10,484 nt of DNA. Source: an uncultured Gammaproteobacteria bacterium. Lineage in GTDB: Bacteria > Pseudomonadota > Gammaproteobacteria > UBA6002. The stretch covers positions 1 through 10,484 of the forward strand of contig CAVPKM010000006.1 of NCBI GenBank assembly GCA_963705725.1, in the 5' to 3' direction. This document shows, piece after piece, positions 3,526 through 10,484 of this stretch. Below the pieces are notes generated by a model. That model did no database searches. It had not been told where the DNA came from and worked only from the letters and a program-made list of their open reading frames with translations. A program made the translations under genes and the position numbers. The first letter of the stretch is position 1; each line of letters starts with the position of its first letter.

Positions 3526-3909
3526 ATGAATTTATCACGCTTTTTAGCAGCTGTCATGGGTTGGTATTTCATCATCATCAGTTTATTAGTGCTTTTGCGC
3601 TATAAAGTTTTTGAGCGAATAGCTAGAGAGCTCTGTCATGTGGAAGCCGCTTGGACATTATCTGGCATGATTATCTTGGTCTTTGGCTTAATCATTGCAG
3701 TGAGTCATAGCTTATGGACACCTGATTGGCGTTTTTTAGTCACCTTAATTGGGTGGATTCTTTTAATTAAGGGGGTAAGTCGCCTTTATTTTCCCACTAT
3801 GACTAAACATCTCACCATACAATGGTTGCAGCGTCGTTATTTGAACCTAATTAGCGCAATACTCTCGTTAGTAATAGGAATATTTTTAATTTATTGCGCG
3901 TATAATTAA
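3526..3909 (+). CDS. Small integral membrane protein of unknown function (about 4 TM helices)
   Basis: 127 aa with four hydrophobic segments, including the HSLW..DWRFLVTLIGW..LIKG stretch. Clear RBS. Its stop codon overlaps the stop of the convergent gene (TTAA 3906-3909). Confidence 0.85.
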   Translation: MNLSRFLAAVMGWYFIIISLLVLLRYKVFERIARELCHVEAAWTLSGMIILVFGLIIAVSHSLWTPDWRFLVTLIGWILLIKGVSRLYFPTMTKHLTIQWLQRRYLNLISAILSLVIGIFLIYCAYN

Positions 3910-5519
3910 TGCTGATATACCTGTAAATTGTTTAGATTAAGATTAATTTCCTCAGTTGAGTTGGAGTAACCGGATCTGCGCCAAAAATTAGATGCTGGCA
4001 CACTCACCATTCTAAATTGATAGGATGGATGGTATGTAGCTGCTTCATGAAAAGCTTTACAAACAAATAAAAGAGAAAATAAAGTGGCATACGACTGGTC
4101 AGAAAATTCATTTCCAACAATTGTGGTAATCATATGAGCAAGAAATGTAATATTGACTCCTAGTGCGGTATAAGATTGATTAAAAAGATAACCATCATTG
4201 TCATGAATTGAACTCACACTATTAAAAAAATTCCTAAGCCTTTCCAGGTGACTGACAACCTGCAAATTACTGAGAGAAACTTGTGCTGTACTGGATGTGA
4301 TGCCAGAAAATTTCTTTTTTAATTTGTTTTTTGCATAAACAAGATTTGCAATGTCGTCAAAGTTAAGATCTTTCAATACGCCATAAAAATTATTCAATGC
4401 CGTATCATCAGCAAACCAGTCAAATATGTCAAAAACATGACATTCTTTTGCCACATTAGCCATCTGTTTTAAAATAGCTTGAGGATTTTCATAATCACCT
4501 AGGCAAACTTGATGATCGATAATTAATGCAGGTGTATTTTCCCAAGCGGGGTGAGCTTGATAAATTCCATTAATCATGGTGAACAATTTATAGGCAGCTA
4601 AATGCTTTTTATTATTATCTCTAATAAAAGAATTACGCTCATGACATCGATAAATTTTTTGAAATGCAGATCGGCATTTTTTAAAATAATAAAAATTTTT
4701 TATAGCTAAATTTTCCAGAAATTTTTTATAAAAATCTTCTTTCATTAAAAAAATTTTGAAGTCCCTATCGTGATAACGATCCATTTCTTGACAGAATAAA
4801 ATCGTGAACATCATTGAATTTTTATGCTCGGCCATATCAAGCATGGAATGAATGTTCATTGATAAAGAAGCAAGGTAGTAATCGATTACCATATCTTCTT
4901 CTCTTCCAAATTTAGATTCACGCCAATGAACTTGCAATTGTTTTAGTGCGTATGAGTATTTATTGAACTGCAGTTTATCCGCCACTAATTGAGATGCGCA
5001 AATAGAATTTGCATTTCTGTAAAGTATTTCTGCTATTTTATGCCTATTTTTTTTGCTTAAGCTGATGACAGTTTCATTTAATAATTCCGCATCATCAATT
5101 TGAGCAAACAATCCACAAAATAATATTTCAAAAGATTCGAATTGCTGATTTTCTTCATAGAAATCTTCAATAAAATTATTATAGATTTCAGCATGATCTG
5201 TATTAAATTGGCAGGAAGTATATTTTTTAATAAAAATTTTTTCATCATCAAAACTATTTTGATCAAAAATGATTGCCTGAACTTGAGTTCGAATCCCATC
5301 TTGAATTGCACGAAGAACAAATTCTTTAGCAGCGAAAATATCGAGATAAATAAAATCTGTTAGATAATAACGAGAAAGTTTAAATTGATATTTAAAACCC
5401 CCTTTGCTTGGTTCATATAAATAATGTAAAGATAATTCTCGATGCTGCCGAGAATAGTTCTCACCTCGTTTTTTTCTTCTACAAATTTCCGCACGAAGTA
5501 TGTTCGTTCTATCTTTCAT
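3906..5519 (-). CDS. Hypothetical protein, candidate secreted effector
   Basis: 537-aa open frame in very AT-rich DNA. AGGTGA RBS (complement of 5526-5531). No family recognised. Basic RRKKR patch near the N-terminus. Divergent from the Wip-like gene. The effector role is an inference. Confidence 0.75.
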   Translation of the reverse strand: MKDRTNILRAEICRRKKRGENYSRQHRELSLHYLYEPSKGGFKYQFKLSRYYLTDFIYLDIFAAKEFVLRAIQDGIRTQVQAIIFDQNSFDDEKIFIKKYTSCQFNTDHAEIYNNFIEDFYEENQQFESFEILFCGLFAQIDDAELLNETVISLSKKNRHKIAEILYRNANSICASQLVADKLQFNKYSYALKQLQVHWRESKFGREEDMVIDYYLASLSMNIHSMLDMAEHKNSMMFTILFCQEMDRYHDRDFKIFLMKEDFYKKFLENLAIKNFYYFKKCRSAFQKIYRCHERNSFIRDNNKKHLAAYKLFTMINGIYQAHPAWENTPALIIDHQVCLGDYENPQAILKQMANVAKECHVFDIFDWFADDTALNNFYGVLKDLNFDDIANLVYAKNKLKKKFSGITSSTAQVSLSNLQVVSHLERLRNFFNSVSSIHDNDGYLFNQSYTALGVNITFLAHMITTIVGNEFSDQSYATLFSLLFVCKAFHEAATYHPSYQFRMVSVPASNFWRRSGYSNSTEEINLNLNNLQVYQH

Positions 5520-7158: not shown

Positions 7159-8064
7159 ATGAAAGAAAATATTCGAATCATCATACATGGTGGTGCGGGA
7201 ATTATTAACATAGCTGAGGAAAATGATGAGCATGTAAAACGTAACCTAAGAAAATTAAAACAAATTATTGAAGCCAATTATCAAGCCCTGCTTGGTGGTG
7301 CAAGTGCTTTAGACGTTGCCGAACAAGCTGTGATTGAATTAGAAAATGATGAAGGCTTTAATGCCGGGCGCGGAGCAGTATTAAATAGTGATGGGTCAGT
7401 CGAATTAGATGCCGCTATTATGGATGGAAGAAACCGCGGTGCAGGTGCTATCGCGGCAGTTAAACGAGTCAAAAATCCCATTTCTGGGGCGCGGGCTGTC
7501 ATGGAATATAGTCATCATGTCTTGCTAGTTGGTCATAATGCTGACCTGTACTGCGAATCACATCATGTTGAAATGACCCAGACACAATATTTCATTACGG
7601 AAGACAGGCGTCTGCAATTAGAAAAAGCGCAAAGAGAAGGGCATGTCAAAGATATCGATGTCCTGGGCACAGTAGGCGCCGTGGTAAGAGATGTTTACGG
7701 CAATTTAGCGACAGCCACCTCAACCGGTGGCAAAACCAATAAAACGCCGGGGAGAGTGGGAGATTCACCAATTATCGGTGCTGGCACTTGGGCTGATAAT
7801 AGCTGCTGTGCCATTTCTGCAACAGGCGATGGTGAGATGTTCATTAAATCCGTTTTTGCCCATGAAGTTGCCGCAAGGGTTAAGTACAAAGAAGAATTGC
7901 TGTCTGTAGCTTGCAAGCAAATCTTGCAGGAAGTCAAACAGCTAGGGGGCGAGGGGGGATGTATTGGAATTGATAAGGATGGAAATATTGTAATGGAATA
8001 TAACACCTTAGGCATGTACCGCGGCTGGATTGATGAGGTAGGACAGTCTTTTTCTGCTATTTAA
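7159..8064 (+). CDS. iaaA: Isoaspartyl peptidase / L-asparaginase (Ntn-hydrolase, plant-type asparaginase family)
   Basis: Motifs IIIHGGAG, LE...FNAGRG, ELDAAIMDG, G|TVGAV (nucleophile Thr171, codon 7669-7671), ATSTGG, GRVGDSP and SATGDGE. Confidence 0.95.
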   Translation: MKENIRIIIHGGAGIINIAEENDEHVKRNLRKLKQIIEANYQALLGGASALDVAEQAVIELENDEGFNAGRGAVLNSDGSVELDAAIMDGRNRGAGAIAAVKRVKNPISGARAVMEYSHHVLLVGHNADLYCESHHVEMTQTQYFITEDRRLQLEKAQREGHVKDIDVLGTVGAVVRDVYGNLATATSTGGKTNKTPGRVGDSPIIGAGTWADNSCCAISATGDGEMFIKSVFAHEVAARVKYKEELLSVACKQILQEVKQLGGEGGCIGIDKDGNIVMEYNTLGMYRGWIDEVGQSFSAI

Positions 8065-8106
8065 CCTACCTACATCCCAGCCTCCGCACTTAATTAAAAA
8101 TTGTAC
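7543..8106. repeat. Direct repeat copy 1 (564 bp), start of the 1614-bp duplication unit
   Basis: Matches 9157-9720 with no mismatch found by eye. ORF-track translations in three frames are identical at offset 1614. Confidence 0.95.
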
Positions 8107-9011
8107 CCTACAGATTTAAAACAGTGATCAGAAATTTCCCCTATCACTTCATTTGGTAATCCTAAATCCTCTTTAGCTGTAAAAAAAGTAAAACAGATCT
8201 GACGTAAATCTTGCAGCTCTTTGGCTTTTTGTTTCAACTGATCGATTACTTCCTGAATAGGTCGATCTAAGAACTTTATTTGCAGCTGATCGCAAACGTT
8301 AATAAGGTAATTAATTTTAATTGGATCAGTTAAATAATGATTGGCATGCTGAATTTTAGCATTGCGATTTTTGTAGGCATATAACTGATAACCTGAAAAG
8401 CCTAGATAAGTGACTAAAAGTATTGAAGGAAGAATTGGTAAAAAATATTTTTCAAACTCTTTTATAACATATTCAGCGGAATCTTTCAATTCTAAAACTT
8501 TTGCCAATTCAGATTTGAGAATATCATCATGAGTATTATTTATTCCATTAAATAACTGACATAATTCTTCATTTATGTCGTGGCAAGCTTCCGAAAAATT
8601 CCCAAGAAAATCAAGTGAACATCTTTCAGACATGGAGAAAGAATTTAATGGAGGACACCCTGCTGAAATATAATTAGCTTGATGCACCAAGAGAGAAGCG
8701 TGAGCGGTAGTAGACTTTAGAGAAAACAATAAATTGGCTATCTCAATTGTGCTCTGCACAGCAGCTAACGCCGTATAGGCGTTCTTAGTATAATTTCGCA
8801 AAGTGTGATAGCCAATATAGCTAGCAGGAATTGAAATAATAAAATTGAATGCTTGTAATAGAAGGGAAGAATAATACTTTTGTTTTGCTTTAATCATCTC
8901 TTTCCTTGCTTCTTCCAAAATGTCAATACACTTGATAATTTTTTCATAGAGAAAAGCATTACTATTGCGATGGGCTTGCGATTTAAAAATAATTTCTGAC
9001 GGATTATTCAT
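8094..9011 (-). CDS. Two-TM hypothetical membrane protein, paralog 1 (candidate effector)
   Basis: 305 aa. AGGTG RBS upstream. Hydrophobic segments SLLLQAFNFIISIPASYIGY and YFLPILPSILLVTYLGFSGYQLY flank a loop with four Cys. Homologous to the ORF ending at 9722. Confidence 0.85.
   Translation of the reverse strand: MNNPSEIIFKSQAHRNSNAFLYEKIIKCIDILEEARKEMIKAKQKYYSSLLLQAFNFIISIPASYIGYHTLRNYTKNAYTALAAVQSTIEIANLLFSLKSTTAHASLLVHQANYISAGCPPLNSFSMSERCSLDFLGNFSEACHDINEELCQLFNGINNTHDDILKSELAKVLELKDSAEYVIKEFEKYFLPILPSILLVTYLGFSGYQLYAYKNRNAKIQHANHYLTDPIKINYLINVCDQLQIKFLDRPIQEVIDQLKQKAKELQDLRQICFTFFTAKEDLGLPNEVIGEISDHCFKSVGYNF
8139..8393. repeat. Near-identical block shared by the two paralogs (partner 9752-10006)
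   Basis: 255 bp with two mismatches (8203/9816 and 8330/9943), both non-synonymous (R/H and T/S). Confidence 0.9.
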
Positions 9012-9108
9012 ACCTGCACCTATATCATAAGTTAGTAAAAATATTCTTATATCATGTAATAAAAAATATGTAATTATATTTGGGTATCTTTTTTTGATAA
9101 TTTACGAT

Positions 9109-9141
9109 GTTAATAATTGTTTAATATTTTCTAAGTAGACT
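9109..9141 (+). promoter_or_regulatory. PmrA-like binding box plus -10 element
   Basis: gTTAATaaT-tg-tTTAATatT (9109-9128) versus the Legionella/Coxiella PmrA consensus cTTAATatT-N2-cTTAATatT, followed after 7 nt by TAGACT (9136-9141). The AT-rich background lowers specificity. Confidence 0.6.
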
Positions 9142-9156
9142 TAAAAATTCAGGGCC

Positions 9157-9678
9157 GACCTGTACTGCGAATCACATCATGTTGAAATGACCCAGACACA
9201 ATATTTCATTACGGAAGACAGGCGTCTGCAATTAGAAAAAGCGCAAAGAGAAGGGCATGTCAAAGATATCGATGTCCTGGGCACAGTAGGCGCCGTGGTA
9301 AGAGATGTTTACGGCAATTTAGCGACAGCCACCTCAACCGGTGGCAAAACCAATAAAACGCCGGGGAGAGTGGGAGATTCACCAATTATCGGTGCTGGCA
9401 CTTGGGCTGATAATAGCTGCTGTGCCATTTCTGCAACAGGCGATGGTGAGATGTTCATTAAATCCGTTTTTGCCCATGAAGTTGCCGCAAGGGTTAAGTA
9501 CAAAGAAGAATTGCTGTCTGTAGCTTGCAAGCAAATCTTGCAGGAAGTCAAACAGCTAGGGGGCGAGGGGGGATGTATTGGAATTGATAAGGATGGAAAT
9601 ATTGTAATGGAATATAACACCTTAGGCATGTACCGCGGCTGGATTGATGAGGTAGGACAGTCTTTTTCTGCTATTTAA
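9157..9678 (+). pseudogene. iaaA: 5'-truncated duplicate of iaaA (end of alpha subunit, linker and complete beta subunit)
   Basis: Lacks the first 128 codons. In-frame TAA at 9142-9144 upstream. A 163-aa ORF from ATG 9187 is possible but has no clear RBS. Confidence 0.85.
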
Positions 9679-9720: not shown

Positions 9721-9721
9721 T

Positions 9722-10484
9722 CTACAAGTTTAAAACAGGATCAAGAATTTTCCCTATCACTTCATTTGGTAATCCTAAATCCTCTTTAGCTGTAAAAAAA
9801 GTAAAACAGATCTGATGTAAATCTTGCAGCTCTTTGGCTTTTTGTTTCAACTGATCGATTACTTCCTGAATAGGTCGATCTAAGAACTTTATTTGCAGCT
9901 GATCGCAAACGTTAATAAGGTAATTAATTTTAATTGGATCAGATAAATAATGATTGGCATGCTGAATTTTAGCATTGCGATTTTTGTAGGCATATAACTG
10001 ATAACCCCAATAGACAAGATTACAGGTTAAAAGTAATGAAGGAATAGATAAATAATTTTCAGAGGTTTGTAAATTAGATTCATAGGAATCTTCCACTTTT
10101 AAACCTATTGCCAATTCAGATTTGGCAATATCGATAGCATTTTTTTCATTAAATAACTGACATAGTTGTTCATTTATGTCGTGGCAAGCTTCCGAAAAAT
10201 TCTCATTTATAAGAAAATCGAGTGAACATCTTTCAGACATTGAGAAAATATCTAATGGAGGACACCCTGCTGAGATATATTTAGCTTGTTGCGACAAGAG
10301 CAAATTGTGAATGACAGAAAACCTTAAAGAATGCAATACATTGGTTATATCTGTAATCCTGCTTTGCACATGAGCTAACTCCATAGAGTAGTCCTTAGTA
10401 AAATAATCCCGCAAAACTTGATTGACAATATAGCTAGCAGGACAATAATCCCGCAAAACTTGATTGACAATATAGCTAGCAGGA
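9722..10484 (-). CDS. Two-TM hypothetical membrane protein, paralog 2 (5' end outside the window)
   Basis: The frame stays open to the window edge, so the TTG start at 10456 is an internal Leu codon. Aligns with paralog 1 from PASYI onward. A 1-bp indel gives it a different C-terminal tip. Confidence 0.85.
   Translation of the reverse strand, partial: PASYIVNQVLRDYCPASYIVNQVLRDYFTKDYSMELAHVQSRITDITNVLHSLRFSVIHNLLLSQQAKYISAGCPPLDIFSMSERCSLDFLINENFSEACHDINEQLCQLFNEKNAIDIAKSELAIGLKVEDSYESNLQTSENYLSIPSLLLTCNLVYWGYQLYAYKNRNAKIQHANHYLSDPIKINYLINVCDQLQIKFLDRPIQEVIDQLKQKAKELQDLHQICFTFFTAKEDLGLPNEVIGKILDPVLNL
10402..10484. repeat. 42-bp in-frame tandem repeat (at least 2 copies, cut by the window end)
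   Basis: AATAATCCCGCAAAACTTGATTGACAATATAGCTAGCAGGAC at 10402-10443, repeated exactly from 10444 to the end (41 bp). Encodes PASYIVNQVLRDY(C/F). Confidence 0.92.

Follow-up and report, generated by a model that had tools for sequence, protein, structure and literature searches.

Tandem copies of an orphan gene in an uncultured soil gammaproteobacterium combine a near-identical C-terminal part with a rapidly changing segment around four invariant cysteines

Introduction

Contig CAVPKM010000006.1 of an uncultured Gammaproteobacteria bacterium (assembly GCA_963705725.1, lineage UBA6002), the 10,484 bp of which are referred to here as the window, carries toward its right end two tandem minus-strand copies of an orphan gene, the complete one encoding a protein of 305 residues. 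The window is the whole of contig C6 in a 1.58-Mb metagenome-assembled genome (MAG) from soil, which consists of 20 contigs and is 92% complete. The locus raises the question of why two neighbouring copies of one gene are nearly identical in one part and strongly different at the protein level in another, and of whether this difference was selected. A preliminary description had read the differing part (8394–8830 in copy 1 and 10007–10443 in copy 2) as a loop between transmembrane (TM) segments, forming a disulfide-bonded luminal or surface domain under diversifying selection in a host-interacting protein. We found that this part changed mainly by amino acid replacement on both sides of a conserved core with four cysteines, with the reading frame kept, and that the adjoining 3' part was almost free of differences; the excess of replacement over silent change was stronger in the regions beside the core, which were delimited post hoc, and borderline for the segment as a whole.

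Results

Replacement changes predominate in the divergent segment

The codon comparison covered residues 62–206 of copy 1, in which 141 codons were aligned with copy 2. The copies differed in 66 of these codons, 58 by replacement and 8 in a fully silent manner, and the differences at codon positions 1, 2 and 3 numbered 35, 36 and 17, respectively (chi-square against equal numbers, p = 0.02). This agreed with the preliminary description, which had reported change mostly at positions 1 and 2 with only a few silent pairs. All of the replacement pairs that it quoted were recovered, namely aat/gat (N123D), gaa/caa (E149Q), gga/gaa (G156E), ata/aaa (I157K), aaa/ata (K171I), gtt/ggt (V172G), ttg/gtg (L175V), tat/tct (Y181S) and ttt/tct (F186S), together with the silent pairs att/atc, tcc/tca, ctt/ctc and tta/cta. 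Likewise, both copies were open through the indels, as it had stated; there were five of these, measuring 1, 1, 2, 2 and 2 codons and all in frame. The stretches YISAGCPPL, FSMSERCSLDFL, NFSEACHDINE and LCQLFN were conserved in both copies, including four cysteines and an NFS sequon, and the NYT and NNT sequons were present only in copy 1.

The annotated frame contained no stop codon in either copy, whereas each of the other five contained 9–14. With the 88 substitutions redistributed randomly over copy 1, the frame stayed open in 313 of 20,000 trials (1.6%). Both sequences have been kept as coding sequences, rather than decaying as pseudogenes, throughout the assembled part; the 5' end of copy 2 lies outside the assembly.

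Selection probably acts differently on the cysteine core and its flanks

For the span, the counting method of Nei and Gojobori (NG86) yielded 332.7 replacement sites with 76 changes and 90.3 silent sites with 12 changes, corresponding to a replacement divergence (dN) of 0.272, a silent divergence (dS) of 0.146 and a ratio (omega) of 1.86. Pairwise maximum likelihood (ML) estimation under a Goldman-Yang-type model with kappa free gave an omega of 1.96 with F3x4 codon frequencies (likelihood ratio test (LRT) against omega = 1, p = 0.048) and 2.61 with equal codon frequencies (p = 0.003). The observed span value was reached in 95 of 3000 simulations under omega = 1, the Fisher test gave p = 0.057, and the p values for the span as a whole were 0.03–0.06. 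A loop dN/dS of at least 1 had been proposed beforehand as the mark of diversifying selection, and the span estimates of 1.86–1.96 (p 0.03–0.06) agree with this; the contrary pattern, a ratio well below 1 with high dS, was not seen.

The ratio was distributed unevenly along the span. The 40-codon cysteine core (residues 114–153) showed an omega of 0.29–0.30, and the flanking pieces around it gave NG86 values of 2.5, 4.7 and 2.2. Taken together, the flanks had an omega of 2.9 by NG86 (reached in 3 of 3000 null simulations; Fisher p 0.004) and of 3.57 by ML (p 0.002). Silent divergence was alike in the core and the flanks (dS of 0.19 vs 0.08–0.17), and because its dS matches that of the flanks, the core owes its conservation to purifying selection rather than to a patch of conversion. 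Stated cautiously, the flanks evolve no slower than the neutral rate and probably exceed it, whereas the cysteine core and an open frame are retained.

A near-identical 3' part adjoins the divergent segment

In the DNA alignment, the divergent part spanned 450 columns, of which 87 were mismatches and 25 were gaps, compared with 10 differences in the next 854 columns (8393 down to 7540). The boundary was abrupt at 8393/8394, with 14 mismatches and 6 gap columns in 8394–8443 and none in 8344–8393, and it falls at the end of hydrophobic segment 2. Seven of the 10 differences were packed into 8107–8138, and none was located in 7543–8106, which comprises the spacer and the asparaginase fragment that has a functionless copy in the second unit. 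Silent changes affected 0 of 47.3 sites in residues 211–291, as compared with 12 of 92.7 in residues 62–210 (p = 0.008). A recently converted 3' end, which the preliminary description had put forward as a rival idea, proved true as well, with a dS of 0 over the next 81 codons against ~0.15 in the divergent part.

The two copies therefore form a mosaic, in which ~850 bp at the 3' side (the asparaginase fragment, the spacer and the C-terminal ~85 codons) are near-identical and ~440 bp encoding residues 62–206 are diverged. This pattern indicates that the 3' kilobase was homogenised recently; either conversion was responsible, or the duplication itself is recent and a diverged middle was imported afterwards. 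The middle, in turn, is older and its protein sequence evolves fast. The C-terminal domain encoded by 8139–8393 (residues 207–291) is the only part shared with P0002, a distant homologue described below. Beyond it, the C-terminal tails of the copies (8107–8138 vs 9721–9751) comprise the last ~14 codons, and a 1-bp indel places the last residues in different frames; the tail of copy 2 (K-IL-D) was nearer to that of P0002 than was the tail of copy 1. In a type IV substrate, the secretion signal would sit in this C-terminal tail.

Tandem duplication and the end of the contig

A head-to-tail repeat with a period of ~1614 bp extends from 7540 onward, and the direct repeats within it are spaced 1601–1614 bp start to start. 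The duplicated unit consists of the last 525 bp of an asparaginase gene, a 29-bp spacer and the convergent minus-strand orphan gene. No third copy of the orphan gene or of the unit was found in the 92%-complete assembly by blastn, tblastn or a six-frame profile search. The coordinates of these features are collected in Table 1.

Table 1. Features of the duplicated region and of the genes beside it (positions in the window; strand given where it applies)
Feature	Coordinates	Strand	Basis
Orphan gene copy 1, 305 aa, complete	8094–9011	-	Open reading frame (ORF) list; AGGTG-type ribosome-binding sequence before ATG
Orphan gene copy 2, 5'-open, 253 codons to contig end	9722–10484	-	72% identity to copy 1 over aa 61–297
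Divergent segment, copy 1 (aa 61–206), span of the preliminary description	8394–8830	-	Alignment (counts in text); omega 1.86–1.96
Divergent segment, copy 2	10007–10443	-	Alignment to copy 1
Four-Cys core, copy 1 (aa 114–153; C119, C131, C143, C151)	8553–8672	-	Omega 0.29–0.30, dS 0.19
Four-Cys core, copy 2 (C74, C86, C100, C108)	10154–10279	-	Sequence
Hydrophobic segment 1, copy 1 (aa 49–67), marginal	8811–8867	-	Kyte-Doolittle 19-residue mean 1.36
Hydrophobic segment 2, copy 1 (aa 189–207), marginal, two prolines	8391–8447	-	Kyte-Doolittle 19-residue mean 1.52
Near-identical C-terminal domain (aa 207–291)	8139–8393	-	2 differences, 0 synonymous
Variable C-terminal tail	8107–8138	-	Seven differences: 8138, 8132, 8131, 8125 (1-bp indel), 8114, 8113, 8107
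Promoter-like -35/-10 pair upstream of copy 1, TTATCA-16-TATAAT	9073–9100	-	Consensus match only; 10 such sites vs 10.3 expected
Duplication unit 1	7540–9153		Direct repeats; alignment shows homology from 7540/9154 onward
Duplication unit 2, ended by contig end	9154–10484		Direct repeats, alignment, blastn
Duplicated asparaginase 3' fragment	9154–9678	+	Identical to 7540–8064 except at 9156
Perfect 42-bp tandem repeat, 2.0 copies	10402–10484		Tandem Repeats Finder (TRF), 100% matches; at very contig end
Asparaginase_2 (isoaspartyl peptidase type) gene, intact	7159–8064	+	Pfam PF01112, E 2.2e-95; 3' 525 bp within unit 1
Wip-family gene, 512 aa	5581–7119	+	Pfam WipA_Phos, E 3.8e-75; NCBIfam 'Dot/Icm T4SS effector Wip', 337 bits, cut-off 300

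The 42-bp repeat unit at the contig end codes for 14 residues, PASYIVNQVLRDY-C/F, which occur twice, at the position where hydrophobic segment 1 ends in copy 1. This repeat is the likely reason why the assembly breaks here; since the contig stops inside copy 2 within the repeat, the 5' end of copy 2 is not seen. Words of this genome were found in one sequencing run, a soil metagenome (X1, share 0.20), and no RNA run was among those that contained them. Its reads yielded four pieces of 151–289 nt, all on the asparaginase gene and its copy and none on the orphan gene or the unit junction; run X2 gave one 33-nt partial match, which came from another organism, and run X3 gave nothing. The interval 8139–8393, directly beside the variable part, is phaseable, and its low divergence is free of the doubt that a short-read assembly collapsed the repeat.

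The asparaginase fragment of the second unit contains an ORF at 9187–9678 (+), an open frame of 163 codons from an internal Met that covers the whole C-terminal part from the GTVGAV site onward. This ORF is letter-for-letter the same as the parent gene, and the fragment with its open frame is probably a by-product of the duplication.

The promoter-like pair upstream of copy 1 is not evidence by itself because such sites are about as frequent in the region as expected by chance. In the spacer that precedes copy 1, a TTAATA-N5-TTAATA direct repeat was observed at 9110–9126 (+), oriented away from copy 1 and toward the duplicated asparaginase fragment. The genome contained 8 such sites, compared with 0–5 in ten mononucleotide shuffles, and another of them (C7, ~143749–143765 (-)) was located 13–30 nt upstream of the first ATG of a second Wip paralogue. 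The repeat resembles the PmrA-type box of Legionella effector genes.

The orphan protein has a single distant relative

An exhaustive HMMER scan of 1.84 billion representatives revealed one relative of the orphan protein, P0002 (E 3.4e-7 over the whole library). P0002 is a hypothetical protein of 218 residues from a Joint Genome Institute (JGI) metagenome contig of 2437 bp; it starts with L and is probably cut off at the N terminus. It aligned with the orphan protein from hydrophobic segment 2 through the C-terminal domain, with 31% identity over residues 196–293 and with the shared motif DP[IV]KIN..INVC[DE]QL. The N-terminal part of P0002 was Cys-rich and unalignable outside the cysteines, which are spaced x11, x5, x14 and x7, so that the C-x11-C and C-x7-C spacings of the window proteins recur in it. 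The order of a Cys-rich part, a hydrophobic segment and the C-terminal domain was the same in P0002 and the orphan proteins, although there were differences: P0002 has a fifth cysteine, a middle spacing of 20 residues instead of 11–13 and a stronger hydrophobic segment (Kyte-Doolittle value of 1.82). As P0002 shares this order and these spacings and is otherwise unalignable in its N-terminal part, the order of the parts is kept across the family while the sequence around the cysteines is free to change.

Further searches added no member to the family. A word-indexed protein search with copy 1 and with the three-row alignment returned nothing beyond the two copies and P0002, a protein query found no homologue among 61 relatives, and a profile run against 400 genomes of the class gave two matches with E values of 0.006 and 0.010 per genome, about the chance level for 400 trials. 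Pattern scans of genome contigs, and of metagenome contigs with P0002, revealed no additional homologue. Pfam, examined at E values of up to 10, gave only a spectrin-like match below threshold (18–20 bits vs a cut-off of 27.6), NCBIfam and PADLOC held no family for the protein, the best match among Protein Data Bank (PDB) sequences was Syncytin-2 (E 0.37, not significant), and the ESM Atlas gave no usable match. An F-box, suggested by an LPxE[VI] motif, did not appear in the Pfam scan.

The Kyte-Doolittle profile of copy 1 (19-residue windows) had maxima of 1.36 (residues 49–67), 1.31 (80–98) and 1.52 (189–207), and the best window of copy 2, starting at residue 145 in the stretch aligned to hydrophobic segment 2, reached 1.01. 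Firm TM helices, as assumed in the preliminary description, were not borne out by such marginal values, and the label 'inter-TM loop' is best regarded as plausible. Lysine plus arginine and acidic residues numbered 3 and 0 after hydrophobic segment 2, and 3 and 4 before it; by eye, P0002 was similar. By this positive-inside count, a topology with the C-terminal domain inside and the cysteine module outside is weakly favoured. The idea of a disulfide-bonded domain held in part, as the four cysteines are invariant between the copies and their spacings recur in P0002; its placement on the extracytoplasmic side depends on the weak charge count. A glycosylated luminal domain found no support, since copy 1 has 3 sequons against 2.4 expected and 43% of shuffles had at least 3. 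The NFS sequon is the only one shared by both copies, and it is located inside the conserved core.

Neighbouring genes and Dot/Icm context

The genes of the window were, from left to right, those for aconitase, fumarase C (FumC), a small DUF308 membrane protein, a 537-residue orphan protein, the 512-residue Wip-family protein, Asparaginase_2 and, on the minus strand, the 305-residue orphan protein. The Wip gene is thus two positions from copy 1 of the orphan gene, with the asparaginase gene between them. The orphan gene was AT-rich (GC 0.33, GC at third codon positions (GC3) 0.27), as were the neighbouring orphan and the Wip gene. A homologue of the asparaginase was present in only one of four genomes of the same genus (43% identity), where it lies in a different neighbourhood. 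The ORF of the 537-residue protein (3906–5519 (-); GC 0.31, GC3 0.23) adjoins the Wip-family gene; it had no family in Pfam, NCBIfam or PADLOC and is another candidate effector. The best matches of FumC, at 64–70% identity, were scattered over many phyla; they included MAGs of Coxiellaceae, Legionella and Rickettsiella and were not decisive for the taxon.

Elsewhere in the genome, dotD, dotC (T4SS_TraI) and dotB (T2SSE) were located together at the end of contig C1, and a second WipA-type phosphatase gene was found at C7:141534–143735 (-), giving two in the genome. The Pfam families of DotH, DotI and IcmS were not found in the 92%-complete genome in searches that were run without a positive control. 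The gene content suggests that a Legionellales-like, host-associated lifestyle is likely.

Other type IV secretion genes were observed as well. A TrbI/VirB10-type C-terminal fragment with one in-frame TAA was present at a contig start (C20:1007–1432, locus L092); it may represent the terminal part of a DotG-like gene that is interrupted either by the assembly or by a genuine stop codon. A VirB-type type IVA cluster that looks complete, at C10:15800–25800 (locus L009, 9821–19800), beside an IS66 transposase, comprised VirB4-like, VirB6, VirB8, VirB9, VirB10, SLT lytic transglycosylase and VirD4 genes and may be a conjugative element.

Discussion

We propose that the window contains two real tandem paralogues of a lineage-restricted orphan gene, the diverged flanks of which were selected, in a small soil bacterium with Dot/Icm genes; we consider this account about as probable as its opposite. 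A unit of ~1.6 kb, in which the orphan gene converges on the 3' half of the asparaginase gene, was duplicated head to tail, and recent gene conversion or concerted evolution homogenised the 3' ~850 bp. With moderate statistical strength, the 40-codon four-Cys module is held by purifying selection, and the ~50 codons on each side change amino acids 2–4 times faster than silent sites. The orphan protein is presumed to be helical and membrane-associated, with its C-terminal domain on the cytoplasmic side and the cysteine module across the membrane; there, two disulfides would stabilise a scaffold from which the variable flanking helices are displayed. After the duplication, selection may have favoured different flanking contact surfaces in the two copies, and conversion tracts entering the variable part would have been removed; such selection against conversion in the flanks is proposed as the reason for the sharp boundary at 8393/8394. 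The protein may be delivered into a host membrane as a Dot/Icm substrate, or it may reside in the bacterial envelope; the company of the gene makes us lean slightly toward a secreted or host-facing role.

The main competitor of this account is relaxed constraint, which we judge unlikely though deserving of serious attention: a redundant copy would drift almost neutrally outside a useful core, and multi-nucleotide mutations together with few silent sites would lift omega above 1. Several points weigh against selected flanks and toward such drift. Over the entire span, omega exceeds 1 at borderline significance (LRT p 0.048, Fisher p 0.057, 95 of 3000 simulations), the split into core and flanks was made post hoc and carries the flank p values of 0.001–0.004, and the comparison consists of two sequences without a usable outgroup for the loop, so that ~12 silent changes carry the denominator. 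Additionally, 17 codons changed at both positions 1 and 2, compared with 8.9 expected (16 vs 10.4 in the flanks). Single-step codon models count each double change twice, and multi-nucleotide events may therefore inflate omega; if each double change is one event, omega could be nearer 1.4 by our own estimate. The ratio above 1 in the span suggests diversifying selection, and the excess is fragile. Copy 2 is also less hydrophobic, lacks an assembled 5' end and has a tail frameshifted relative to copy 1, and it may be non-functional. On the other hand, neutral drift cannot yield an omega above 1, and the flank values of 2.9–3.6 arose in only 3 of 3000 null simulations. The absence of stops, expected in 313 of 20,000 random trials, and the in-frame state of all five indels also speak against drift, and copy 2, the tail of which is the nearer to P0002, is not clearly the decaying one. 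The structural side of our account has weak points of its own: AlphaFold2 returned all-helical models of unusable confidence (mean predicted local distance difference test (pLDDT) of 44.4 from the single sequence and 37.2 from three rows), and with hydrophobic segments so weak, especially in copy 2, both the membrane topology and the disulfides are putative.

It is improbable, in our view, that the assembly produced the pattern by turning divergent alleles of a single-copy hypervariable gene from co-existing strains into a tandem array, or by overstating the identity of the repeats. The material invites this concern, as the MAG derives in 20 contigs from a soil metagenome, the contig ends inside copy 2 in the perfect 42-bp repeat, and none of the four X1 pieces covers the orphan gene or the 9153/9154 junction. 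Moreover, the differences in the near-identical block all lie within ~290 bp of its edges, as might be expected if only phaseable variants survived, and the centre of the 850-bp repeat may have been collapsed to one consensus by short-read assembly, so that its identity is perhaps overstated. An allele bubble offers no path from 9153 back to 7540, however, and to the left of the two homology starts the sequences have no word in common that would account for a misjoin; the low divergence of 8139–8393 beside the variable part is phaseable and hence real. Programmed variation of the cassette type, with copy 1 expressed, copy 2 as the donor, and the identical 3' block and the cysteine core anchoring segmental conversion that swaps the flanks, appears very improbable. 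The alternation of variable part, conserved core, variable part, identical block and variable tail, together with a copy 2 that lacks an assembled 5' end, resembles donor-cassette systems such as Anaplasma msp2/p44 and Neisseria pilE/pilS, but tblastn and the profile search found only two copies in the genome, and the core, with a normal dS of 0.19, is not an active conversion anchor. Many-cassette antigenic variation with several silent cassettes was not supported, since the assembled, 92%-complete genome has two copies only. A minimal two-cassette device is just as improbable; it would consist of a surface or secreted membrane protein with variable helical flanks on a double-disulfide scaffold, in which the 3' block enables recombining or switching of flank sets and the 42-bp repeat adds length variation at hydrophobic segment 1. 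Finally, the localised divergence with its sharp edge could recall a diversity-generating retroelement or other targeted mutagenesis writing the variable region, an origin to which we give practically no credence. Adenine was involved in 24 of 87 mismatches counted on copy 1 and 27 of 87 counted on copy 2, which is no adenine bias, the changes comprised 40 transitions and 47 transversions, indels are present, and silent divergence is uniform over the core and flanks. No reverse transcriptase (RVT_1) in the genome scored above the Pfam cut-off (best 20.8 bits vs 29.6), and with this result and the symmetric spectrum the retroelement was rejected.

Returning to tandem paralogues with selected flanks, we compared them with known systems. 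Partial concerted evolution is familiar from tandem fast-evolving paralogues, including plant R genes and pathogen surface antigens. The orphan genes are like such effector or surface paralogues in that conversion homogenises one part, whereas another part stays different and shows dN above dS; they differ in that there are two copies only. The hydrophobic hairpin of chlamydial Inc proteins is bilobed, with a very short connecting loop. The orphan protein resembles these in having two hydrophobic segments and a helical or coiled-coil-like C-terminal domain that would face the host cytosol, and it differs in the ~120 residues with a cysteine module between the segments, in the secretion system and in the lineage.

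The claim that the protein interacts with a host draws solely on its context, namely the Wip effector neighbour and dotDCB. A loop of ~120 residues is atypical of Legionella TM effectors. In its setting, an orphan low-GC gene near a Wip-family effector gene in a genome with dotDCB, the protein resembles Legionella-type Dot/Icm TM effectors such as SidF. Its two moderately hydrophobic segments resemble the TM segments of many effectors, which often lie just below the threshold for inner-membrane targeting (PMC6110835); sub-threshold segments would fit the weak hydropathy seen here and would let the protein bypass the inner membrane. Its C-terminal domain is predicted to face the cytoplasm, where the secretion signal of such effectors must be presented (PMC11602083). 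The difference lies in the region between the hydrophobic segments (residues 49–67 and 189–207), which here has ~120 residues and four cysteines, whereas the periplasmic loops of the L. pneumophila TM effectors studied are mostly shorter than 30 residues, and enlarging the SidF loop lowered translocation by 80% (PMC11602083). The long loop speaks against the effector reading, because larger loops cut translocation, if the protein first inserts into the inner membrane.

The overall pattern is of a known kind, in which a gene is duplicated, evolves partly in concert and changes rapidly at the protein level around a structural core, and what is new is its occurrence in a family nearly without relatives. 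Should the proposed account be true, the locus would be a compact natural case in which conversion keeps one domain identical while selection parts the surfaces around a fixed cysteine scaffold, and the orphan protein would be a candidate for contact with a host, a phage or a competitor through such a surface. With statistics from two sequences, it offers a modest starting point for finding effectors in Legionellales-like lineages from the environment.

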